A program made the position numbers and the translations under genes. This document shows positions 21,214-63,706 of a DNA stretch of 64,000 nt, piece by piece. Below the pieces are notes generated by a model. That model saw nothing but the letters and a program-made list of their open reading frames with translations, was not told the DNA's origin and ran no database searches. The stretch covers positions 128,024-192,023 of the forward strand of contig JAHHTH010000004.1 of assembly GCA_020024755.1 (NCBI GenBank). The letters are read 5' to 3'. Position 1 is the first letter of the stretch. Every line of letters starts with the position of its first letter. The stretch comes from Mycoplasmataceae bacterium (GTDB lineage: Bacteria > Bacillota_I > Bacilli_A > Mycoplasmatales > Mycoplasmoidaceae).

Positions 21214-22260
21214 TTAATTATTAGATAGCAATTCTTTTGCTTTATCTTTGATTGCTTTATTATTGCATTCATAACAAGAAAAAGTTTCTGTTTTTCTAAA
21301 AGCAATATAACCTTGTGTAGTTAAAGCTTTTAAACTATCTTTAATGTTATTATCATCAATATTTAAATTCTTTAATCTTATTGCATCTTTTATGTTTTGT
21401 TTTGTGACTGGTATATTTGTTTCAATCAATTCATTGATAATTAATAAAACTATATCTCTCTTCTTAAGTTTAGAAGTTTTAATCATTTGATGGAAATCTA
21501 GATTGTCCATTCAAACTTTAAAGCAATTATCTAACATTTCAAGATAGAACTTAATAAATTCATCTGCATTGTTATTTTCTTCACTTCATCCAATTGTAGA
21601 AGTTCTAATTGATTCAAAGTATTGTGATTTGTTTTGAAGCATATAGTTTTCAATTGAAATATATTTAACGATATTGTAATTATTTGCAATTAATAGATAA
21701 TTAGTTATTAATCTGCTCATTCTTCCATTGCCATCTTCAAATGGATGTATTCTAAGGAAGTTAATAATGAATAGAGGTATCTTAATTAAAACATTTAATG
21801 TTTGTTCGTGTTCTCATCATAGAATCAATTCCTTCATTAGTATTGGTGTTGCAGCTACACTAGCCATTGGTTCTTTATCAACATAGTTTTGCTTTTGCTT
21901 TCAAACACCTATATGATATGTCTTATCCATATCTACACCTTCAAATAATTTCTTGTGTCACGATAGTATAGTTTCAAGTGACAAATCTATTTTATCTGAA
22001 TTGAGTTTTATATCATTTAGAATTGCATTATAATTTTGATTAAGTTGTTTAACTTTTTTAATATTCTTAGATCTTTTAATGCTTAGTCCTTCTATTTCAT
22101 TAGATGTTTCACCTGATATTTTAGTGGCGTTATCTGAGCAAAGGATTTTGTCTATATTTAAAATGTCTAATGAAGCATTATCAAGAGAAGCTTCATTCTT
22201 GATGTTAATAGTATTGACCAATGATTCTAAGTTTACATTTTTATAATATTTTATCTTCAT
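21214..22260 (-). CDS. Fic family protein (AMPylase-type) with C-terminal winged-helix-like region
   Basis: Track ORFs 21214-21510 and 21958-22260 share a frame, and the gap between them is open with TGA=Trp. Canonical Fic motif HPFEDGNGRMSRL. Confidence 0.88.
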
Positions 22261-22311
22261 AACTAATCTAATCTTATAGTGGATTAAATGTTTTTATAGG
22301 TTTTTTAATAA

Positions 22312-22436
22312 AAACTACCCAAAAAGTTTTAATTTTTCATAAGAAACTACCCAAATAATTCATTAAATTAATAAAAACTACCCATAAATACTTATAAATT
22401 AGAATAAAACTACCCAATATTAATAGAAACTACCCA
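22312..22436. repeat. Five phased direct copies of AAACTACCCA
   Basis: Exact decamers at 22312, 22344, 22375, 22407 and 22427 (spacing 32, 31, 32, 20 nt), in the divergent fic/peroxiredoxin intergenic region. Confidence 0.85.
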
Positions 22437-24346: not shown

Positions 24347-25708
24347 ATGTTAGTTAAATTTATCGTAGGAAATGTTCTTTCATTCAATGAACAACAAGAA
24401 TTTTCAATGTTTGCAAACAACAAAATGAATAGAATGAATGAAAGAAATTATATTTGAACAGACAAACAAATCCTAAGATTAGGAGCAATTTTTGGTGCAA
24501 ATGCTTCTGGAAAAACCAATTTAATTGAATCCTTATCAATAATGAAGGACTATGTAAAAAACACATATAGTCATGCAAAATATAGATCAGATTATTTCTT
24601 ATTTAACAAACCAGATAAACCAAGCTATTTTGAAGTTGGTATTTTAATTAATGATCAACTTTATGCATATGGATTTGAAGTTATTCTTTCGCAATCTAAG
24701 ATAATTAGTGAATGACTATATTTAATTAAAGGACAAAAGGAAGAAAAAATATTTGAAGTAGACAAAGATAGAAAAATCTCATGAGGCTCTAGCGTTAATA
24801 AAGATTTGATTAAAAGAATTAAAGTAGCATATGAAATGGATTTTGTTCAATCAGATGATTTATTAATTACATTTTTAAATTGAGGCAAACCTTCATTTAA
24901 AAAGGCAGAGGGCTCAGAGATCTTTGTGCAAATTTATAGATGATTTAGAAATAATTTAATAATTATTAGTCCTGAGGACAAATATATTGATCAAATTGTT
25001 TTTGAGGATAATTTTATAATGAACCTTTCAGAATTGTTATCAGGGTTTGATACAGGTATTAAGAGAGTCGAAACTAAAGAAGTAGCTGAAGATGAAGTTA
25101 GAAAAGAAGTTGGAAGCAAAATATTTTCTGATGTAACTTATACTTTGAATCGCGGAAAAACAAGAGACTTAAATTTTAAAATGAAGGAAAGCAAGTCTCT
25201 GTTAATAGGTAATGAAATATTTATTATGGAAATATCTAGTGAAGCAGAATGTAAATTCAAAAAATTAGTTTTCTTTCATGATGATAGTGAAACTGAATTT
25301 TCTTATTCTAATGAATCAGATGGTACAAAAAGATTAATTCAAATCTCAACAATATTAATGAGTAAAAATGATGATTTAGTATTTTTAGTAGATGAACTTG
25401 AAAGATGCCTTCACCCTCACCTAACATGAGGATTTATAGAATCTTTCTTATCTAGAAATATAACTAATAGAAATCAATTAATAATGGCTACTCATGAACT
25501 TTACATCATGAATCAAGATTTATTAAGAAGGGATGAAATTTGATTCACAAACAAAATAAATAATGCAACTGAGTTGTATTCACTATCACAATTCAATGTT
25601 AGAAACGATAAAGTTATATTGAATGGATATAATGATGGCAGATTTGGTGGAGTGCCATATATCAATCCTATAATTGATTTTAAAAGTTTAAGGGATGGTA
25701 AAAATTAA
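24347..25708 (+). CDS. AAA15/ABC-like ATPase (AbiLi / AriA / PtuA-like), cassette 1
   Basis: 453-aa frame through TGAs. N-terminus LVKFIVGNVLSF, Walker A GANASGKTN, signature-like SDGTKRL, Walker B LVFLVDELERCLHP and H-loop MATHE. Confidence 0.85.
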
Positions 25709-26646
25709 TGAGAAAACCAAATAGAATTGGAGTTGATGTTAGAGAAACGAAAACTGAATATGAAGTACACCATCTATTTTATGAAGGTGTAGTTACAGAA
25801 CATCAATACTTTTCCTATTTGATTAAAAATAACGATTGAATTCTTAAACGCGAAAGAATATCAGTTAAACTTCTAAATAGATATGGATCAGAAGTTGGTT
25901 TATCTAATCCTAATACAATGTTGTCAAGAATTAATGATCTGATTAATTCAAAGAAAATAAATAAGGAATTAGTATTAGACAACATTTCTAAATTCATAGA
26001 ATCTCATTCAACCAATCTAAGTAATGCCCAAGAAGTAAATAAAGCTAAGCAAAAAACAATTGAAGAAATTAATGAATTATTGAAAGGGATGGATATTTCA
26101 GAAATAGTTAGCAATGCTAATATACTAGCAACGAAAATTAAACAAATTATTGACAAGAATCTTTTTCCAATTGATGATGTTAATGAAATTATTAAATTAG
26201 TTAAAACAAGTCAAAGATTTGCTGATGGCGACAAGATTCATTTAGTTTGCGATATTGACAAGCACTTTAATAGTCAAGAAAAATATAATAAATTCATAGA
26301 GAAATGTAAACATGAAAAAGTTAATGTATATATAACTAAACCATGTTTTGAATTATGAATATTGTTTCATCATAGTGATTGTAAATGCTATGACTATAAC
26401 AATTTACTAAATAATACTAAAATTGGAAATAATGGTAAATTTATTTCATGAAAATTAAGAGACTTTCATGCAATGTCGAAGAAACATATTAATGATGAAA
26501 AGTTCTACTCTAATCTAGTTAATGTTCAAAAAGCAATTGATAATTCATTAAATTATTCTACTAATCTATTTGAGTTATATGACAAATTAGGAACAAATAT
26601 TCCTGATCTTCTTATAATGATATTTAAAAAGAATCTACACAAGTAG
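25708..26646 (+). CDS. RloB-like (Toprim-related) protein, cassette 1
   Basis: ATG overlaps the ATPase stop (TAATG). N-terminal YEGVVTEHQYF resembles the RloB motif EGxxTExxYF. Also has IHLVCDIDK and ITKPCFELWILFH. Confidence 0.8.
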
Positions 26647-26678
26647 TTAAATAGTAGAATCAGCAAGATACATTAAAT

Positions 26679-26731
26679 GCTTGATTGAGAAATTAGATGG
26701 ATTTTGCTTGATTGAGAAATTAGAAGGATTT
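26679..26731. repeat. 27-bp tandem duplication
   Basis: GCTTGATTGAGAAATTAGATGGATTTT followed at once by GCTTGATTGAGAAATTAGAAGGATTT. Lies between the RloB-like and HNH genes. Confidence 0.9.
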
Positions 26732-26771
26732 ATAATTTATTAATATATTAAATTAATGAAGAGGTAGTCAT

Positions 26772-27041
26772 ATGCAAATTAATGATACTAAACTTAAGAA
26801 AATTTGAGAAAAAGCACCATACTGCAGTTGTAATCAAATTGATTGTTCTCCAAATAACCACAGATTATGTCCTATATGTGGTGAAAAAATGTTATGAGGT
26901 GCATATTGAGGTCATGTAACACAAAGAAATAGCTATTTTGCTTGAGACATAGATCATATTATCCCTATATCAAAAGGTGAAACTAGTGAACTATCTAATT
27001 TAAGAGCAGTTCATGCTAGATGTAATCGTTCTAGAAAATAA
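26772..27041 (+). CDS. Small HNH endonuclease with CxxC zinc knuckle, cassette 1
   Basis: 89-aa frame (5 TGA=Trp) after GAGGTAG. Contains CPICGEKM, WDIDHIIPISKGE and NLRAVHARCN. About 55% identical by eye to the ORF at 59461-59781. Confidence 0.85.
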
Positions 27042-50806: not shown

Positions 50807-51370
50807 ATGGCAAAATCAACATGTTTTATTTCATATTCTCATGAGAAACAGAATAAAAAGAAATTTAATGCCTTATGTAATATGATAAATAATTCCAAAA
50901 AATTGGATAATTATTCTGAAAGAGATGATAAATCAAAACTAACTGATGAATCTATTTGATCTTATTTATATAAAAGAATATCTGGTGCAACTATTACAAT
51001 TGTATTACTTACAAGAGACCTATTCTATGAAAATAAAGATAAGATAAATTATAAGAGGGGGAGTTTTTTAGAATCAGGATGAATATACAATGAGATTTGT
51101 GCCTCACTTAAAAACAAAAAGAATAATAGTTTAAATGGAATTATATGTGTATTCGATGAAGCTGTTGAAAAAATAATAGTTGATGGAAATAATATTATTT
51201 TAGATAGACTTCCAGAAATTCTTGCAATGAATGCAGAATATATTGTTTGAGCTAGATATGATGATTTTATGAACAATCATTTATCATACATTAATTCATC
51301 TAAACAAAAACGTCTTAACCAAATAAAATTGACAAAATACAAAATCAATTACGGATTACACAAGAGGTAG
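50807..51370 (+). CDS. TIR-like domain protein (DUF1863 / ThsB-like), copy 1
   Basis: 187-aa frame through TGAs reading CFISYSHE, ESIWSYLYKRISGATITIVLLTRDL, ESGWIYNEICASL and LNGIICVF. Confidence 0.78.
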
Positions 51371-51490
51371 AAAATGATTGATAAATTTCTGTCAATTTTA
51401 ATAGTTTATGAGTGATATTAATTTATTGATAGATAACTAAATAACTTGAAATTTAAATGATATATAACTATTAAAGAGGTATTTAATTTA

Positions 51491-52033
51491 TGGCTACAAC
51501 ATGTTTCATTTCATATTCTCATGATAATATCAATAAAGAAAAAGTAACAAAAATTTCAAACATAGTTAATGGCTCTTCGAAGCTAATTAATTTTTCTGAA
51601 AGAGAAGATAAATCTATGTATTCAGAAGAAACTATATGAAAATATTTGCATGATAGAATTGCAGGATCAACATGCACTATTTTGTTCCTCACTGAGGATT
51701 TACTAACATATAATAATTACAAGTTAGGATATGTTAGAAATAATTTTATTGAATCAGGATGAGTTTATAATGAGATATCTGCCTCATTAAGGGATTGAAA
51801 AGATAATAGAATAAATGGAATCGTTTGTGTAGTAGAAGATCATCTTGCTAGTTATATTGCAGATTCTTCAGGCAAAATTGATGAGAACAAACTTCATGAA
51901 ATACTTGCTGTCAATTCTGAATATATTGTATGAGTTATGTATAGTGAATTTCTTAAAAATCCACATGAGTTTATTGATATTGCAAAAGCGAAAAGAGATG
52001 AACAAATAAAGTCGGGGGAATTCCGCCTATAAA
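51491..52033 (+). CDS. TIR-like domain protein (DUF1863 / ThsB-like), copy 2
   Basis: 180-aa frame reading CFISYSHD, ETIWKYLHDRIAGSTCTILFLTEDL, ESGWVYNEISASLRDW and RINGIVCVV. Confidence 0.78.
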
Positions 52034-52134: not shown

Positions 52135-52632
52135 CTATCTTATTAATATTGTTATTATTAAGGCAACAATGTCAATTGCTAAAATATTGATTCATAGTAG
52201 GCTAACTCAAGATTTATATTTTTTTATTCTAAATTTAAAGCTTCCATTTGCCTTTTCCTTTAATTGTTTTTTAGATTGAATGTAGTTTATTGAAGCTATT
52301 TCTTTTCAAGGATTTTCTTTATTGCATAATTCTTCTAAATTTATTTCAAGTAGATTATTATATATGTTGACAAAAACTCTTTCATTATTTAAGTTTACTG
52401 CAAAGCAATAGAACATCACAATTGTTGTTAATACCATAATCCCAGCAATTGTGATTCTTGCATAGTTTATCATATTCAATGAAAAAATTAAAGGCAATAA
52501 TATCCCAGAGATAATCAGGTTAATTGATAAAAGAGTATAACCTATATTCGATAATCTTGTAATTGTAGATTGAATATTATTTAGTCTGTTAATGTGAAAA
52601 TTACTAATTTGTTCTATGTCATGTTTCTTCAT
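52135..52632 (-). CDS. Small three-TM membrane protein downstream of TIR copy 3
   Basis: Track ORF 52306-52632 extends through three TGAs to TAG 52135 (165 aa). Hydrophobic helices LLSINLIISGILLPLIFSL, ITIAGIMVLTTIVMFYCFAV and WVSLLWINILAIDIVALIITILI. Its start lies 8 nt after the upstream stop. Confidence 0.6.
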
Positions 52633-52640
52633 GTGTTTAC

Positions 52641-53252
52641 CTATCTATTATGAAAATCATATTTTATTCAATATGTATTATTTTTTATATGATCATCTCT
52701 TTTTCTTCTTGCATCATCCAATCAGCTATCTGTTTTTTGCATAAATTGTTCATATGTACAGACAGTTATGAAACTAGTCGTTGGATTATACTTACAATTA
52801 TCTATTGATGCACCTACTTCTCTAACGCCTTTCATATTATTTATATTTGCATTAATTATTTCTCTTTCATGTTTATATAAACTATTTTTATATGATTTAT
52901 TTGATGTGCAATCTACAATAAGCAAACCATTTATTCTGTTATTATCTCAGTCCCTTAGGGAACATGATATTTCTTTATATACCCAACCTGATGACATAAA
53001 ATCATTACCTGGTAATAATTTATGTCTATTTGTCGATATTAAATCATCTGTAAGCAATAAAACAGTTACTGAAGAACCTTTGATTCTATTCTGTAAATAT
53101 TTTCATATTGTTTCATCTGAACAATGAGATCTATCAACTTTTTCACTATAATCATATGCCAATCCCTTTTCCGTCATATGAGATACAACTCTATCTTTTA
53201 ATTTTTCATTTTCATTTGTGAACGAAAATGATATGAATGTGTTATTAGCCAT
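52641..53252 (-). CDS. TIR-like domain protein (DUF1863 / ThsB-like), copy 3
   Basis: ATG 53252 after AGGAG. 203-aa frame containing track ORF 52722-52925 and reading FISFSF, ETIWKYLQNRIKGSSVTVLLLTDDL, SSGWVYKEISCSLRDW and RINGLLIV. Confidence 0.78.
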
Positions 53253-54922: not shown

Positions 54923-54963
54923 AAATTTGTAAAATATGTGTTATAGTATTTTTGGAGTGTACC

Positions 54964-55413
54964 ATGGACTTAAAAAGAAGATTAAGTGATTTACATCTAG
55001 GAATTACTGAATTATCAGAATACATTCATATTTCTAGACCTACATTGTATAAGTTCATTTCATTATATGATTCAAATAATAAAAAAGATGTTCCTAACAA
55101 CATTACTAAATTGTTTGATTTTATAATGAAAAATGAGCTAATAGGTAAAAATAATGTAATCAATTATATTTTCAATGAAATTTTATTAATCCGTAAGAAT
55201 GATAATGAATTAATTAATCAATTAGTTTTTTTTGATAAGAATTCAAAAAAATATAAATTCATTGAGCATATAGTTTCGCATAATAACATGGACTCCATAG
55301 TTTACTTTTTGGTTGATATTATAAACATTAGTTCTAAAACTAAAAGATCTGATAGTGAAAAAAAGAAATTAGATATCTACGAAGAAATACTAAATGAAAT
55401 TAAAGAGGGGTAA
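54964..55413 (+). CDS. Putative helix-turn-helix DNA-binding protein
   Basis: ATG 54964 lies 7 nt after GGAG. The N-terminus LGITELSEYIHISRPTLYKFI looks like an HTH. Ends 6 nt before the OLD gene. Confidence 0.55.
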   Translation: MDLKRRLSDLHLGITELSEYIHISRPTLYKFISLYDSNNKKDVPNNITKLFDFIMKNELIGKNNVINYIFNEILLIRKNDNELINQLVFFDKNSKKYKFIEHIVSHNNMDSIVYFLVDIINISSKTKRSDSEKKKLDIYEEILNEIKEG

Positions 55414-55419
55414 TTTATT

Positions 55420-57264
55420 ATGAAGTTTAAAACAAGTAAGTTTATATTCAAAAATTTTAGAAATATTGGAATTAAAAGAGAAGAGTATTTTAATATTGGA
55501 AATTATTCTGAAGGATGTGGAAATAAAAATGGTGATTTGGTCATTATAATTGGAGCAAATAATACCGGTAAATCAAACATTATAGATGGGATTTTTAAGT
55601 TTGCAAATAATGCAATTGATATTAATAGAGATAAAACAAATTTAGATTTTGATGAAGATAGAAAGAATATATCTATAGATTTTGAGAATAGCAAAACTCA
55701 AATAAAAAACTGCAACAACAAGATCGATATTATTAGTAATGATAATAAAGAACGTCTTGAATTACTAAAAAAAGAGTTCATAGAAATTGCAAGAGAAAAA
55801 TTTTCTAAAGAAGAATTTGAATGTATGAAAATGTATATACCTAATGAGTCACTAGATGGTTTCCTTGATGTAGTTCAAAATATTGGATATTCTTTGAGCA
55901 TTAATTGTGGGTACTTTGGAGGTCCTTATAGTTATCGCTACAATAATATTTCAATTAACAAAACTAATTTGTCAGAATTTTCTTCCTTTACTAGCAATTT
56001 TAGAAAACTATATGATAGTGTTAAAAACAAAAAAATTCCTTTTAAAGTATTAAAATATAGCGATCAAAACCAATTTAGTAATTCAGATTTAAGAATATCA
56101 TTAGATGCAGCATATATAAAGCAAAACAATTTTTGAAGAAACTTATTTGCAAAAATTGATTTTAATGTTGAGGAACTACAAAATTCAGCACAAACTGCTA
56201 CTACTCAGACTAATTATGGAATCCTTGAAAAACAAGAAGCAAAGATTAATAAATTATTAGAAAATAAAGTATCAAAAAAATTTAATAAATTATATACATT
56301 TGGAAAAACAAATTATGAATTTAAAGTTAGAATAGAAAGCAATAATATTAATTTGTTAATATATGAAAATAATGAACCTATTACGCTAGAATATCAATCC
56401 ACAGGATTCAAGTGATTCTTCACACTTTACTTTAATAACATTTTAGAAACTTTAACTAATGGAGATATTTTACTACTAGATGAACCAGGAGTTTATCTTC
56501 ATGCTAACGGACAAATTGAATTAAGAAAGTTTCTTAAGCAATTAGCTAAAGAAAAAGACATTAATATAATACTGACAACTCATTCTCCATTCATGATTGA
56601 TTTAGATTATCTGGATGAAATTAGAACTGTAACTAAAGTGAATGGCTGTATTAAAATCAATAATAAATTTTCTCTAATTGATATTCCAAATCCCGATGAA
56701 AGTGATGATCCAGATAGTATAGATGTATTAAATGAAATTAAGTCAGCTTTAACTATTAGTAAAAATGTGTTATTCAAGGAAGAATCTAAAGTATTCTTTG
56801 TTGAAGGTATTACAGACTATAACTATTTAACTGGAATGAAACAAATATTAGGGGAAGAGTATAAAGATTTAATCTTTCTTCCGATAAATGGTTTAGGTAA
56901 AGATAAGAAGCAACAACAATTGATAATTGAAAAAATAGTTAAATTATGAAAATATGAACCAATTATTTTAACAGATTCAGATGGTGAAAATGGGGTTGGT
57001 AAAAAATTCAAAAAATTAGTAGAAGAACTAAAAGCAGGATTAACAGTTTTGAATCTTGATGATTTGGTTGAATCTTTCAGTGGCACAATTGAAGATGTAT
57101 TCTCTGAGAATGATAGAAAAAGAATATGCTTTGATAGTGAAGGAAAATTACAAAAAACATTTAATGCATCTGCATCATTTAAAAAATATGCTGATTCACT
57201 TCAATTAGAAGAAGAAACTATTAATAACTTTAAAAAAATATTTGATAGTTTAATGTTACAGTAA
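55420..57264 (+). CDS. OLD-family nuclease (ABC-type ATPase + C-terminal Toprim)
   Basis: Three track ORFs in one frame (614 aa), with gaps checked. Walker A GANNTGKSN, QSTGFKWFF, Walker B LLLDEPGVYLH, TTHSP. Toprim glutamate FFVEGITDYNYL and DxD ILTDSDGENG. Confidence 0.85.
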
Positions 57265-57564: not shown

Positions 57565-59025
57565 TTATCTTTTAATATTAAAATCATTTTTTCTAGATGA
57601 TGGTATAAATTTATTTTTGAATTGTTGTATCTTGTATTTAATAAATTTATCATATTTAATTACAATTCAGTATAAAATAACATCCACAATAAAATCAACT
57701 AATAATCCGAATCCAAACATTAAAGCTATTGATTCGAGTGATGGGATTCATGCACCAGTCTTATAACAAATATAGTAAATTGGATAGAAGATTAAATTTA
57801 CTATTATAGTCTGAAGCAAAAAAATACCAATTCTACCTTCTGCAATGAATCATGCATCTAATGGTGAACTTAAAGCATAACAAATATAGAAAGCGAATAG
57901 TAACATGATAATCTTATAGACAGAAGAAGCATCATCTACATTCATAATAGTGTGAATAAATGGTTTATATGCAGGAATAGTAATAGCTCAAATTAAAATA
58001 AAGACAAGTGTTAAACCATAGTAGAATGTCATTTTATAATTTCTATCTTTTATAGGGTCATCAAAGATAACTTGAGAAGCATATGTTTCTTTTATGAACA
58101 GAGATAGCATTGTAATAGGCATTAACATTCATGTTCAAATAAAACTATTGGCTACTCAGTAAGTTCCTTGTTCTCCAACTAGTGCCATCATTTTGATGAT
58201 CATATATGAAAATACCACATTCCTAATAAGAGTTTCGGCTCCAGCTAACAGAAAGTTTTTAAAATATAGAATAATATTCGATTTGTTAAATAAGAAACAA
58301 TTGTCTAACTTATAAGTAAACATAGCACTGGATGGCAATAAAAAATAAATTATACTAGCTAAAAGAAATAATACACTTGATACTATTGAACTTATTCCAA
58401 GACCTTTATATTCTAATTTTAATGAGAATGAATTGTCACTTACAATAAATAGGTCTAGCATTGTATTGGAAATTAAATATAAGGCATTGACTATTATACC
58501 CATTCAAAGATAACCAGGTAATCTCAAAATAGAGAATGAAACAATTAAATAACTAGCAAAGTTAGTTAAGAATATAGCCCAAACTTGATACATCATATAT
58601 TCAAGTGACTTGGATCTAGTTATTGAGTCCAGGTTAGCATTATCAAGAATTGGATTTAAGCAAGCAAAGATAATGATGCTAAATAATAAGAAAAGTCCAA
58701 AAACAATTAAAGTTAATGATGTAAATGAACCCTTTATTTGTTCACTTACATTTTTCTCTTCATCCATCTTATCCTTAATTTTTGATAATCAAAAGAACAT
58801 TGGGACAATAATCGCTTCTGTAATTATTTCATAGGCAATATTCAATCATTGTATTTGAGATGCAATAGTATAACTAGAACCATCATTTATATCACCAATA
58901 AAGTATATTCTTACTGTTTGATAGATTGCAGGAATTAAAATTGTTAAAGCAATAATCAAAAATAATTTTCAATTAAAGTTTTTAAGAAATAGTTTTCAAT
59001 CATTTTTATTTAGTTTTATTTTCAT
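57565..59025 (-). CDS. MATE / polysaccharide-flippase-like multi-pass transporter
   Basis: 486-aa frame joining track ORFs 58156-58503 and 58504-58767 through many TGAs, with ~12 hydrophobic segments. The family call rests on size and topology plus MatE-like loops only. Confidence 0.55.
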
Positions 59026-59069
59026 ATAATACACCCTCTTATAATTATATTGGCAACTAATTATTTATT

Positions 59070-59111: not shown

Positions 59112-59460
59112 CATAAAACATTATATGTATTAAAATGTGTAACCGCTAATTAGATTTCCTCACCTCTCACTAACGGATTTCCCCACCTAAGGTGCTAGTA
59201 TACATCCCACAATAAAACTGTCTTGTCCTACTATTTGTATCACTGCTCAAATATAAGTTTATAAAACACGTATAAATAAAAATTTCTCCAACGCACCATA
59301 AAGGAGTTTGGAGAGCCGAGCGTAGATACGAAATCTACAACTAATGATTTAATTATATAGCAATTTACATAAAATAGACATATATCTTTTTGTCATAAAA
59401 TGAACTATATCTTTTTTATTTGAAACAATAGATTTATTTAGATCACAAATTAAGGTTAAT

Positions 59461-59781
59461 TTAATTATTACTTAAAATGTCAAATAACTCCTTTGTAGTA
59501 TATCCTTCGTCTGAATGATCACTATTACACTTTACGTGAACAGCTCTGAGATTTTCTAATGCATCAGTACCACCTTTGCTTTTAGGAATAATGTGTTCTA
59601 CATTTCATGAATAAAGTGTATTTCTCTTTGATTCATTTCCCCAATAGCAACTTCATAGCATTTTACCACCGCACAATGGACATGTTCTGTGGTTTTCAAC
59701 GGTGCAATCTTCTTGGTTGCAAGTGCAATAGTTTGCTTTATTTCATATTTTTCTTAATTTTGTTTCATTATACTTTGGCAT
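59461..59781 (-). CDS. Small HNH endonuclease with CxxC zinc knuckle, cassette 2
   Basis: ATG 59781 lies 7 nt after AGGAGG. 106 aa reading TKLRKIWNKANYCTCNQEDC, CPLCGGKM, WNVEHIIPKSKGG and NLRAVHVKCN. Paralogue of 26772-27041. Confidence 0.85.
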
Positions 59782-59801
59782 AATCATGCCTCCTATAATT
59801 A

Positions 59802-60392
59802 TTATTTGTTGTTTGTGTTTTTCTTTTTCTTTAGTAATTCAACTATATCAATAAAATTCGATATTTCTTTATTTTTTAAAATATTTAATCTAGACTCCCA
59901 CTGGTGTACTAGTTTTTCATCTTGTTTAATTTTCTTTTTTATAAATTCTATAATTCATTTAGTATTTTCTACTTTTTTGTCTTTATCGAAATGTTTGCCA
60001 TTATTTTTGAATATCTTATAAAATTCTTCATCAATTCATTTCTTAGTTTTATTTGAGTTTATATCTTGAAAGAAACATAATAAGATTAACTCAAAACATG
60101 GATCAGTTATAACGAAATCAATTTGTCACTGTCTACAACGTACTAAGCAATCATCTATCTTTTTATCTTCAAGGTTATCTTTATCAATAATTATATATTT
60201 TTCACAGCAATCTTTATGCTCTCCATCTATATTATTGTTTCTGATGCTGCCTGAAATTAACTTGGAATGTTTTTTACATTTTCTTAAAATACTATTTCTA
60301 TAAACTATATCCTTAAGGAATGTTATAAATATTTCTTCACATTTACCTTCATATTCAATTGAGAATGCATTTAGATTTTTATTTTTCATCAT
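59802..60392 (-). CDS. RloB-like (Toprim-related) protein, cassette 2 (short form)
   Basis: Track ORF 60126-60392 extends through TGAs to TAA 59802 (196 aa). Contains EYEGKCEEIF, YIIIDKD and ITDPCFELILLCF. Confidence 0.72.
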
Positions 60393-61587
60393 CTAATCAC
60401 CGTAAAGCATAATTAATATAAGGGTCATATCCTATCTTTCCTGATAGGTATTGATTTGAGAATGAACATTTTCCTCTAATAGTGCTTCCGAATTCATTAA
60501 GACATACAACATTAGTGAACTTAGACTCATTAAGAGCTGCAAAGTATATTTCATCTCTTCTGAACAAGTCTTCACTTAATGTGTTCATATCGTGAGATGT
60601 ATAAATTAATTGAGCTGTACCAGGATTCTTCTTAAACATTTTTATAATATATTCAAGGATCTTAGTGTGTAAGTTTGCATCTAGCTCATCAATTAAAATG
60701 ATTGAGTTATTTTTTAATCCAGTAACCATGATAGTTAATAGTAATAGAAGTTTTCTAGTACCAGATGACTCGTAATTATATGCAACCTCAAAATTTTCTC
60801 CATACAATGATTCTTTTACAAAGGTAATTTTATCCGGGTTAGTATTTCCCTTAGGATTCTTAATGTCAATGATGTTAATATCCAATTCCTTAAGTATAGT
60901 TAATATTTTGTCTTTGTTATGCATTAATATTCCAATATTTAGACAAGATGTTCGAAATGGCATTAGTAATGAAGGCATTAATACATTACTAACATTTGTT
61001 GTATTGTCGAAAATTATTATTTTAGAAAATTCATTTTGCAACATCTTGATTTCTTTAGAAGGGAACATATTAAAAAAATTAAATAGTGAAACATCTAATG
61101 ATGCAATGTCAATTTTTCCAAAATTTGTTTTGAGAACATCATCAAGATAAAATGAAATTTTATCTCCATCATTAGTTTTAGAAAAAATAACTCTTTCCTT
61201 TTTGTTTTGTTTAATTACATATTTTTCTTCGATGATCTTATCATCAATTGAAATTGAATAACATAATGTTTCTAAATTATCTGTTAAAAACTCTATGTAT
61301 CATGAGATGGGTTCATTAATAGTTTCTTTATTTCTGAATCTTTTAGTTTCATCTATGTATACTTGTAAGTTAACTCTATCCGTTTTAACAAGTACAATTA
61401 AATAAAAGATAGAGCTTAAAAAAGCAGTTTTACCTCCTCCATTAGGACCATACATTGAAATAACAGGTAAAATCTCCCCTTTGTTTAATGTTTCACTAAA
61501 GGGTTTTAAAGATTTTGAAGCATATAGACTGATTTCTTCTTCATTTTGTATCGATAAGAAATTTTTAACTTTGTATCTAGCTAACAT
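60379..61587 (-). CDS. AAA15/ABC-like ATPase, cassette 2
   Basis: Track ORFs 61300-61587 and 60397-61068 are in one frame; I checked the gap codon by codon. Walker A GPNGGGKTA, ESSGTRKL, Walker B ILIDELDANLH, TSHD. Reads through TGA 60397 to TAA 60379, overlapping the RloB-like start. Confidence 0.85.
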
Positions 61588-61945: not shown

Positions 61946-62083
61946 AACTGTGGTAGAAAGAGCTCAAAATGAAATTTGTATGAGCAAGGCTATAGCACTA
62001 AATGTGTGTTATAGCTTTTTTTTATTTTTTTGTCTCTTTAAATTCCATAGTTTCTTAAAAAGTTGCTCGGAAAATATGCAAAA

Positions 62084-62160
62084 ATACAAAACTAAACTTG
62101 ATTTTTATTAAAAAAATACAAAACTAAACTTAATTTTTGAATAAAAAATACAAAACTAAA
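62084..62160. repeat. Three phased direct repeats ATACAAAACTAAA (32-bp period)
   Basis: Exact 13-mers at 62084, 62116 and 62148, each embedded in AAAAATACAAAACTAAA(C)(T)T.ATTTTT. Confidence 0.85.
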
Positions 62161-62202
62161 TGATTTTTCAGCTTCTATTGCCATTAGTTTTTCATTAAAA
62201 AC

Positions 62203-62270
62203 ATAGGATTTTTGTTAAAACTTTACATTTTTCCTATAGGATTTTTGTTAAAATTTAACATTTTTCCTAT
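62203..62270. repeat. Two tandem ~33-bp units, each bounded by ATAGGA...TCCTAT
   Basis: ATAGGATTTTTGTTAAAACTTTACATTTTTCCTAT followed by ATAGGATTTTTGTTAAAATTTAACATTTTTCCTAT, overlapping at a TCCTATAGGA palindrome. Lies directly upstream of the ATPase gene. Confidence 0.8.
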
Positions 62271-62290
62271 ATTTAGAGTATATTTTAAGT

Positions 62291-63706
62291 ATGAAAAGAC
62301 TGATAGAAAAGAAAATTATAGACTGAGCTAATGACAAAGAAGATTTAAAACCTCTTTTCATTTTAGGTGCACGTCAAGTAGGAAAAACATATTCAATACT
62401 TAAAATAGCTAATCAGCTATTTAAAGATAATTATATTTATATTAACTTCTTAACCGATGAAGACTACTATGAAAAACTAAATGGAATTACTTCACATAAT
62501 AAAATAATTGATATCATTGAATATGTTAGTGGCAAACATATCAATGATCAAACTCTAATTATATTTGATGAAGTGCAAAGAGTTCCAAGTATCAAAACAT
62601 CTCTAAAGAATTTTGTAGAGGCAGGATCAAAAGTTAAGATTATATGTTCAGGTAGTTATTTAGGCAACTTTTTGAAAAATGATAATTATTCTTTTCCCGT
62701 AGGGAAGATTCATAGACTACATATGTATCCTATGTCATTTGAAGAATTTGTTATAGCTAGAGGACAAGAAAAGATTTATACAACAGCTAAGCAAGATTTA
62801 CTTAACCATAAAGAAGTTAATAAAGCAGATCATTTCATATTAACGGATCTAGTTTATGATTATATGATTGTTGGAGGAATGCCAGAAGTTGTAGACATGT
62901 ATATCAACAAAGCCAATTATTTATCAATTAATAAACGTAAACAAGAAATTTTAGAAGATTATAAGAATGATATTTCTAAATATGATATGAAACCTAATGA
63001 TAAATTTAAAGCTGAATCAATATTTAAAAATATTCCCATTTTTTTATCTAAACTAAATAAGAAATATATGTTATCTAAAATATCTGGTACAGCTAGATAT
63101 ATAAACTATGCTAATGCAATTCAAAACTTATTAATTACACAAATAATTTATAAGATCAATAATATAAGTTCTTTGGCCACTCCAATTAAGACTAAAAGAA
63201 TAGAAAACGAATTTAAGGTTTATTATAACGATTGCGGATTTGTATCCACAATATTTAATTTAAACAAAGATATTCTATTAGATAGCAAATCAAATATATA
63301 TTCAAATGAAAGAGGAGCACTAGCTGAAAATTTTGTATTAACTGAAATTAACAAAAAGATGTTAGATTTCAATTTGTCTTATTATTCATTTTTAGGTAAT
63401 GATAATCTTGAAAATGATGTAACTGCAAAATCTGGTACTCATAAGAACTATGAAATTGATTTTGTATTAGATGATGATAAAGGACTATCTATACCAATAG
63501 AAGTTAAATTTGGTAAAACATATAGTACATCATCATTAAGCAAAGTAATCAATGATAATCATCCCCCATATTCAATTATATTTAGTGCTAAGAACTATAG
63601 TTATGATTTAGATAAGCAAATATATAGATTCCCTTTATATTTTGTTTCTATGATTGATATTGAAAATGATCGTTTATTATGCAATCAAATAAAGATTACT
63701 AGTTAA
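62291..63706 (+). CDS. AAA_14 + DUF4143 family ATPase
   Basis: ATG 62291 is in frame with track ORF 62573-63706 through one TGA. Walker A GARQVGKTY, Walker B LIIFDEVQ. C-terminal EIDFVL...IPIEVK restriction-endonuclease-like tail typical of DUF4143 proteins. Confidence 0.82.

Follow-up and report, generated by a model that had tools for sequence, protein, structure and literature searches.

A 64,000-nt stretch of DNA from a Mycoplasmataceae bacterium (GCA_020024755.1, contig JAHHTH010000004.1, positions 128,024-192,023 of the forward strand), referred to here as the window, carries two three-gene cassettes. Each encodes an ABC-type ATPase, an RloB/Toprim-like protein and a small HNH protein. 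The genes of cassette 1, on the plus strand, are named A1, B1 and H1; those of cassette 2, on the minus strand, are A2, B2 and H2. Coordinates are collected in Table 1, and labels of the form L0xx and P000x denote fetched comparison loci and proteins. The window has a GC content of ~25% and TGA is read as tryptophan. Each cassette gene has 2-7 in-frame TGA codons, and TGG is absent from A1, B1 and H1. Translation table 11 breaks the long reading frames at TGA; table 4 closes the open reading frames (ORFs) into both cassettes. An earlier note on this DNA described an ATPase gene coupled to an RloB-like gene by TAATG, an HNH gene 125 nt downstream and a second, diverged copy of the trio at 59461-61587. 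Under genetic code 4, both cassettes are present as it described them, and so are all the motifs that it quoted. Divergence between the copies is confirmed by amino acid identities of 23% for A1 and A2, 25% for B1 and B2, and 61% for H1 and H2. H2 probably starts at its second ATG (59461-59781, 106 aa), because an AGGAGG sequence sits 7 nt ahead of that codon.

Table 1. Coordinates of the cassette genes, of other features of the window, and of selected genes at comparison loci. Positions refer to the window unless a locus label is given.
Feature	Position	Strand	Details
A1, AbiLi-type ABC/AAA_21 ATPase, long-partner canonical subtype	24347-25708	+	453 aa
B1, long-type RloB/AbiLii Toprim protein	25708-26646	+	312 aa; TAATG overlap with A1 stop (1 nt)
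B1-H1 spacer	26647-26771	+	125 nt
H1, HNH nuclease (two zinc sites, one putative), Mollicutes-specific family	26772-27041	+	89 aa
A2, AbiLi-type ATPase, short-type lineage typical of Mycoplasma-type trios	60379-61587	-	402 aa
B2, short-type RloB/AbiLii Toprim protein	59802-60392	-	196 aa; 14-nt overlap with A2
H2, HNH nuclease, same family as H1	59461-59787	-	108 aa from first ATG; 14-20 nt after B2
ThsB-type TIR paralogue	50807-51370	+	PADLOC ThsB, 4e-20 to 4e-23 for the three paralogues
ThsB-type TIR paralogue	51490-52032	+	As above
ThsB-type TIR paralogue	52641-53252	-	As above
Predicted membrane protein amid TIR genes	52135-52632	-	165 aa
OLD-type fused ATPase-Toprim protein	55420-57264	+	614 aa; PADLOC Old 1.6e-16, ATPase-Toprim_I-B, AriA/GajA-like; Pfam AAA_15
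AAA_14 + DUF4143 protein	62291-63706	+	PADLOC PDC-S01 6.6e-112
Fic/DOC-family protein, C-terminal DUF7625	21214-22260	-	Flanked by peroxiredoxin-type genes; ~2 kb upstream of cassette 1
Solo HNH lacking catalytic His	L025 5971-6264		
Solo HNH lacking catalytic His	L031 5878-6171		
Solo HNH lacking catalytic His	L026 1341-1634		
Solo HNH lacking catalytic His	L034 2931-3224		
Solo HNH lacking catalytic His	L029 5962-6252		
Solo HNH lacking catalytic His	L033 1824-2114		
Membrane-protein homologue near solo HNH	L036 3900-5801		
Membrane-protein homologue near solo HNH	L039 1461-2840		

Both ATPase-RloB pairs belong to the AbiL family, as the earlier note had proposed for this part of the trio. 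The ATPases exceed the Pfam cut-off for AAA_21 (E = 1.2e-29 for A1 and 4.8e-22 for A2) and the best PADLOC model for both is AbiLi (5.5e-75 and 2.1e-56). Models for AriA, PtuA, GajA, NsnB and HEC-01A score tens of orders of magnitude below AbiLi. A1 has the motifs of the class: Walker A (GANASGKT, residues 50-57), a signature-like SDGTKR (324-329), Walker B (FLVDELE, 346-352) and an H-loop (ATHE, 381-384). The Walker A and B motifs of A2 are at residues 47-54 and 297-303. B1 matches Pfam RloB (1.5e-19; 71.4 bits against a cut-off of 31.5) and PADLOC AbiLii (1.2e-12). Its YEGVVTE (25-31, with E26/E31), DID (182-184, D182xD184) and KPCFELW (211-217) motifs are conserved. B2 falls under the same Pfam cut-off (2e-06, 28.6 bits) and matches AbiLii at 1.4e-06. 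Aligned with hhalign, the profile of the B2 family matches that of bona fide RloB proteins with 95.9% probability (E = 5.3e-09). B2 conserves E15/E20, D70xD72 and PCFELI, which are the EG..E, DxD and P..E..L motifs of canonical RloB.

The two pairs represent different branches of AbiL. Homologues of A1 are numerous (>5,600 at E<=1e-10, many of them 35-40% identical over their full length) and form a very large AbiLi subfamily. In length, B1 falls into one class with the RloB proteins that accompany these homologues (306-309 aa). A2 is 36-42% identical to the ATPases of nine other trios, and B2 is 24-41% identical to the RloB proteins of other trios. Unlike canonical RloB, short-type RloB proteins (B2; L002, L013-L038) have no ~110-aa helical insert; a Cys/His-rich segment (C-K-x-H ... 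CC), which may be a metal site, stands there instead, with the Glu motif on one side and DxD on the other.

H1 and H2 match the Pfam HNH family PF01844 at 8.3e-09 (35.9 bits) and 3.7e-10 (40.2 bits), respectively, above the cut-off of 21.4 bits. In H1 the motifs are CPICG (33-37), DHIIP (61-65) and NLRAVHARCN (76-85). The zinc site of the HNH fold (C33, C36, H81 and C84) and active site residues H62, N76 and N85 are invariant in the family alignment, and D61 is nearly so. The family also has an N-terminal set of its own, with W12, C18, C20 and H30 invariant and C25 near-invariant (H1 numbering). From this CCCH motif we infer a second, putative zinc site. H1 keeps all of the catalytic and zinc residues; H2 keeps E64-H65, N79, H84, C87 and N88 together with both Cys clusters. 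None of the six cassette proteins matched a specific NCBIfam family; the HNH proteins had only weak IscB/Cas9d HNH matches there. No PADLOC defence-family model matched them convincingly: REase_II reached ~1e-3, and PtuB matched H2 only, at E 0.003-0.009.

By profile, the nearest solved relatives of the family are the En domain of a group II intron maturase, Cas9 HNH, ZRANB3 and McrA. One of the top profile matches in the Protein Data Bank (PDB) is AceCas9 entry 8D2K (E 0.003). Both PHROG and PDB matches reach only residues ~30-88. H1 stops four residues past the HNH core and the tail of H2 adds only ~20 residues. The HNH protein looks to be a bare catalytic core with a small zinc module and no recognisable target-binding domain. 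When 1.84 billion representative proteins were searched exhaustively by profile, only ~40 proved to be full-length members of the family; each is stand-alone and 78-110 aa long. A phage origin was considered and rejected; PHROGs, IMG/VR viral contigs and GenBank phages gave matches to the generic HNH core only.

Linkage of the HNH gene to ATPase-RloB pairs was measured in an HNH-centred scan using one genome per species, code-4 ORFs and iterative local profiles for the ATPase, RloB and HNH proteins. The Mollicutes contain 33 HNH loci in 26 species-representative genomes. At 14 loci, each in a different genome, the genes follow the order ATPase-RloB-HNH on one strand; the HNH thus directly follows a short-type pair in 14/26 genomes with the HNH. 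One of these genomes is that of the cultured Mesomycoplasma moatsii NCTC10158, where the trio lies in NZ_CP146987.1:335106-347351. Further trios come from metagenome contigs (4) and from L066. In 12 loci, the RloB gene and the HNH gene overlap by up to 14 nt or are up to 14 nt apart, measured from RloB stop codon to HNH ATG, and the purine-rich ribosome binding site (RBS) of the HNH gene lies within the RloB 3' end. A protein search with an H1+H2 profile returned only ~11 close relatives. Where context existed, P0003, P0005 and P0008 are directly behind an AAA_21 + RloB-type pair; P0007 follows an incomplete ORF that the local RloB profile recognises. Non-Mollicutes matches, ~34% identical, are not behind such a pair.

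The three genes evolve together at different rates. Over 11 complete trios the HNH evolves slowest, with a mean identity of 60%; the ATPase averages 41% and RloB 35%. In Mantel tests over the same trios, divergence of the HNH correlates with that of the ATPase (r = 0.51) and of RloB (r = 0.59; p = 2e-4). The flanking genes vary between genomes and no conserved fourth gene was found around the HNH at the compared loci. Chance adjacency is excluded for the trio, because order, strand and near-zero spacing recur in 14 genomes and the genes co-diverge. The earlier note had taken the linkage to be functional and not accidental. The non-random part of that claim stands; the functional part is weakened by solo HNH genes. 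At two trio loci (L032 4028-4309 and L038 3792-4073) a second, highly divergent HNH of the same family lies ~105-135 nt before the ATPase gene, giving the order H-A-B-H. In the HNH tree, these additional copies branch off deepest.

Outside this group, the pairs examined have no such HNH. The nearest relatives of the short-type ATPase A2 come from 80 metagenome loci, mostly of gut origin, and are 26-32% identical, or 37% at one Mollicutes-like locus (L067). An overlapping RloB-sized gene sits beside the ATPase in most of them. The HNH family was found within +-4 kb of the ATPase at 0/80 loci, with no HNH-like ORF there even at E<=10. Two of three annotated plasmid loci show an 'ATP-binding protein' and an 'RloB family protein' only; the record of the third ends just after the ATPase gene. 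The A1 relatives examined (four proteins at seven loci, 36-40% identical, from standard-code organisms) are followed by RloB and no HNH. Their RloB proteins are of 306-309 aa (L059, L061-L063) or 241 aa (L064/L065), or are split (L060). The link between the HNH and AbiL is Mollicutes-restricted and lineage-specific.

Cassette 2 is a typical example of the conserved trio; cassette 1 is atypical and contains a different AbiL subtype. Compared with the ATPase and RloB proteins of all other trios, A1 and B1 reach only 19-27% identity, and H1 is 44-59% identical to the trio HNH proteins. The closest H1 relative found is in L066 (72% identity for amino acids, 77% for nucleotides). There, the HNH gene overlaps by 11 nt a short RloB gene, the product of which is 38% identical to B2 and unlike B1. 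At the DNA level, the window and L066 are similar from a point 36 nt before the H1 ATG, which in L066 falls within the 3' end of the RloB gene. The resemblance of the spacer to that 3' end exceeds shuffled expectation (z = 4.1, p ~0.004). When the B1-H1 spacer was tested by profile for an RloB relic the result was negative, and the relic remains a weak lead. Thus, it is plausible, though the support is weak, that in an older trio a canonical AbiL pair took the place of the short-type pair or came to lie ahead of it. That cassette 1 was imported horizontally in recent times was ruled out, because all tryptophan codons of A1, B1 and H1 are TGA and the composition matches that of the host. The spacer contains two tandem copies of a 27-nt repeat (26678-26731) in perfect register with one mismatch. 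This repeat occurs nowhere else in the window, is missing from the 146 loci compared and shows no significant RNA structure.

HNH genes that stand apart from an ATPase-RloB pair are called solo here. The catalytic His is kept in 18/19 linked HNH proteins. In a solo subclade at housekeeping loci (Table 1) it is replaced by L, Y or M, and all eight Cys/His zinc ligands are kept. The difference in His retention between the linked proteins and this subclade gives a Fisher p of 0.004, uncorrected for phylogeny, with the six solo proteins forming one clade. Within the linked clade, this reads as nuclease activity being maintained in the trio setting and dispensable after long detachment. The His-less proteins may have been exapted as non-catalytic zinc proteins. 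In Candidatus Mycoplasma liparidae, both HNH loci have decayed (L020 5418-6258; L021 5696-6258). At L020 a broken RloB frame runs in-frame into the HNH, and at L021 the ATPase-RloB pair is wholly lost. Beside L021 are the same type III restriction-modification (R-M) genes as those around two complete trios, L023 and L024.

AbiL, from Lactococcus lactis, is among the oldest known abortive-infection systems, and we know of no established mechanism for it. A 2026 review treats AbiL as a two-component system and groups it with PARIS under ABC ATPase + Toprim. The window cassettes resemble AbiL in having an ABC-type ATPase followed by an overlapping RloB/Toprim gene, with AbiLi and AbiLii as the best PADLOC models in both. 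They differ by the third gene, an HNH downstream, which is coupled in typical trios, and the RloB of cassette 2 is shortened by loss of the ~110-aa insert. Literature searches turned up no account of an AbiL-type pair followed by an HNH gene, and no named three-gene system matches the trio. A fair label is an undescribed, Mollicutes-restricted three-gene variant of AbiL. We file it so because the ATPase and Toprim components are those of AbiL and the two-gene composition is not.

The earlier note had called the trio an AbiL/PARIS-Septu hybrid, and neither of the latter two names could be retained. In PARIS, an ATPase oligomer sequesters the Toprim nuclease, which is released by a phage protein and then cleaves tRNA. 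With its ABC ATPase and separate Toprim nuclease, PARIS is the best mechanistic precedent. However, no AriB model was matched by B1 or B2 at E<=0.01 in PADLOC, PARIS is without an HNH, and the generic AAA_21-like AriA model PDLC02980 (1.3e-29 for A1 and 6e-24 for A2) scores far under AbiLi. Septu and retron-Eco7 combine an ABC ATPase with an HNH nuclease; PtuAB nicks DNA and is linked to cleavage of tRNA-Tyr. PtuB has a Cas9-like core and docks on PtuA's C-terminal extension via a helical C-terminal domain (PMC12819146). The likeness to Septu ends with the ATPase, the HNH beside it and the Cas9-like core. The PtuB model does not match H1 and matches H2 at E 0.0026-0.0087, and no PtuB chain is among the PDB profile or fold matches of the HNH. 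The best PtuA scores (5.9e-08 for A1, 1.4e-11 for A2) are again far under AbiLi, and Septu has no Toprim partner.

Other relatives share parts of the design. RloA/RloB pairs from type I R-M loci of Campylobacter, and the plasmid ATP-binding + RloB pairs, have the same two-gene core. The window cassettes lie outside any type I R-M locus, unlike RloA/RloB. The plasmid ATP-binding proteins are 25-30% identical to A2 and, unlike in the cassettes, no HNH follows their RloB partners. OLD and Gabija GajA draw on the same ATPase and Toprim superfamilies. However, these domains are fused there and on separate ORFs here, no helicase is adjacent, and the cassettes have the additional HNH. Menshen (NsnA-NsnB-NsnC) also has three genes, an ABC ATPase and, in some NsnC variants, an RloB/Toprim effector. 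A1 matches NsnB weakly (3.3e-07). Conversely, Pfam shows no ParB/DUF262 NsnA among the genes flanking either cassette, the third gene encodes an HNH and the ATPase is AbiLi-type.

The explanation that we favour, with confidence only a little better than even, is that both cassettes are AbiL-family modules accompanied by a lineage-specific HNH, which is the third cistron of a short-type AbiL operon; cassette 1 would be a secondary arrangement. In a Mycoplasma-type lineage, a ~90-aa HNH of the beta-beta-alpha-metal type would have become the third cistron of this operon, presumably co-transcribed and translationally coupled to RloB, with its active site kept by selection. In cassette 1, a canonical long-RloB AbiL pair would now stand ahead of an HNH of the same family. 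It is likely, but unproven, that the HNH acts within the AbiL system. By analogy with PARIS and Septu, the AbiLi ATPase oligomer may be a sensor and scaffold that responds to a phage cue and otherwise holds the nucleases inactive. The trigger would free or activate the Toprim protein and the HNH, host or phage nucleic acid would be cut and infection aborted. The HNH would be a second effector or a co-factor. Since no target-binding domain can be recognised in it, its recruitment probably depends on the ATPase/RloB complex. Faster divergence of the ATPase and RloB would fit evolution of sensor and interface under phage pressure, with the HNH as the conserved catalytic part. We infer co-transcription, a physical complex, substrates and a defence phenotype.

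One competing explanation is an autonomous HNH, either a minimal nuclease or a former selfish element, that rides the AbiL operon for expression after one old insertion followed by vertical inheritance. We think this unlikely, but several observations favour it or weigh against our own explanation. Nineteen of the 33 Mollicutes loci have the HNH without an adjacent ATPase or RloB, and six of the trio genomes hold an additional solo locus. The neighbours of the solo genes are housekeeping genes; another defence partner for them was rejected on this ground. Spiroplasma, Mesoplasma and their relatives have solo HNH proteins that fall outside the linked clade in the tree, with the active site retained. 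Evidently, the family began, and can persist, as a stand-alone gene. Inside the linked clade, a relic of the RloB 3' end lies just upstream of the HNH at L021 (E 4.7e-4) and L035 (E 5.5e-6); here the ATPase-RloB pair was deleted and the HNH ORF survived. L067, a Mollicutes-like locus centred on an ATPase 37% identical to A2, has a truncated RloB and no HNH. The linkage sample itself was chosen by presence of the HNH and not by short-type pairs. No natural fusion of the HNH to RloB or to the ATPase occurs among the 1.84 billion representative proteins, where longer matches were tandem HNH repeats or unrelated proteins. The run-on ORF at L020 was rejected as evidence of fusion, the locus being decayed and the RloB frame broken upstream. 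PtuB is more than twice as long, and its helical docking domain is missing from H1 and H2. The AF2 model of the HNH has a predicted local distance difference test (pLDDT) score of 73 and no Foldseek match in the PDB at E<1; the non-significant matches start with McrA, the Gme HNH nickase and HNH domains of Cas9, which is consistent with the HNH class and informative no further. Simple vertical co-inheritance would also give co-divergence. Solo copies weaken the case for an obligate three-part machine. Conversely, overlapping stop/start junctions were kept while the ATPase and RloB diverged to ~35-45% identity, and cassette 1 pairs the HNH with another AbiL subtype, unrelated to the first. The oldest solo lineage in the linked clade lost the catalytic His that nearly all linked copies keep. 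Moreover, the ~90-aa HNH is without the DNA-binding domain typical of free-standing homing endonucleases, and viral contigs are without the family, generic core matches aside.

For cassette 1, two accounts compete. The HNH may have joined another AbiL subtype in an independent event, and a functional affinity would then gain support. Alternatively, it may be a by-product of recombination, with H1 expressed from a promoter of its own and not working with A1-B1; we regard this as a tentative alternative, short of an even chance. The 125-nt spacer differs from the near-zero spacing elsewhere, and contains a promoter-like TTGATT-17-TATAAT (26708-26736), with a GAAGAGG RBS ahead of H1. H1 may, on these features, be transcribed separately from A1-B1, which would count against a shared operon. 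The similarity to L066, beginning within a short RloB gene, and the lack of an HNH beside A1-type pairs at the other loci examined point the same way. However, promoter-like matches are no more frequent in this AT-rich DNA than expected from shuffles (24 found, 29 expected), and such scans therefore cannot decide operon structure. No terminator is predicted between B1 and H1, the relic profile test was negative, H1 has lost none of its catalytic or zinc residues, and the TGA codons speak against recent import. Sequence alone does not separate the two accounts. A true Septu/PARIS hybrid, in which the HNH is a miniaturised PtuB bound to the ATPase and RloB is AriB-like, is highly improbable. It draws on the related ABC ATPases of all three systems, the secondary PtuA and AriA matches of A1 and A2, the marginal PtuB match of H2 and the Cas9-like cores of PtuB and the HNH family. 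The AbiLi scores, the lack of AriB and of significant PtuB matches and the absent docking domain largely refute such membership. That unrelated genes merely met in defence islands is scarcely conceivable: cassette 2 and several related loci do lie in defence-rich neighbourhoods, but the same arrangement recurs among differing flanks with nothing else conserved.

The conserved, coupled trio is real, undescribed and confined to one lineage. PARIS, Septu, Gabija and OLD have made ABC-ATPase/nuclease systems central to work on phage defence. If one ATPase does work with both a Toprim protein and an HNH, these effector types can be combined and are not alternatives. A bolder proposal, which we consider doubtful, is that a single AbiL-type ATPase is sensor and scaffold for two nuclease effectors, the Toprim protein and a minimal two-zinc HNH, with two substrates. 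These might be two tRNAs, or RNA plus DNA, a design undescribed for AbiL, PARIS or Septu. Escape of phage via their own tRNAs, or via an inhibitor of a single nuclease, would then be harder. Should the HNH instead prove to be a passenger independent of the pair, what remains is two ordinary AbiL loci. The trio adds a Mollicutes-specific defence-gene family, and at ~2.1 kb offers a compact three-gene system for studying ATPase control of nucleases. It also documents module decay, through solo HNH genes left by deletion of the pair and a putatively catalytically dead solo lineage. Standard classifiers perform poorly on Mollicutes genomes, where code 11 breaks genes at TGA, and the HNH is in no defence model.

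The defence island around cassette 2 comprises three genes for ThsB-type TIR proteins, one for an OLD-type ATPase-Toprim protein and one that matches PDC-S01, a candidate system of PADLOC (Table 1). No ThsA was identified among the scanned proteins of the window, and the TIR locus may be Thoeris-like with an unrecognised partner. The OLD-type gene is preceded by an unannotated 153-aa ORF (54952-55413) and is the third OLD-superfamily ATPase/Toprim unit within 64 kb. Beside H2, a gene on the minus strand (57565-59034) encodes a polytopic membrane protein. Homologues 38% and 27% identical to it are found near solo HNH genes in two other Mollicutes genomes, a hint that the HNH genes share an ancestral place in the chromosome. 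Rfam and tRNA scans over the window gave no matches. Between H2 and the next gene is a GC-rich patch (59150-59350, minus strand; up to 41% against ~25% for the genome), with no Rfam match and no signal of structure or family (fold z-score -1.2). Intergenic tandem repeats of 31-33 nt, in 2-4 copies, occur at 62080-62271, between cassette 2 and the PDC-S01 gene, and at 22301-22417, upstream of a peroxiredoxin gene near cassette 1. The PDC-S01 gene lies ~700 nt from the start of cassette 2 and is divergently transcribed. The AAA_14 + DUF4143 combination is also found near AbiL-type pairs in L006 and L061.

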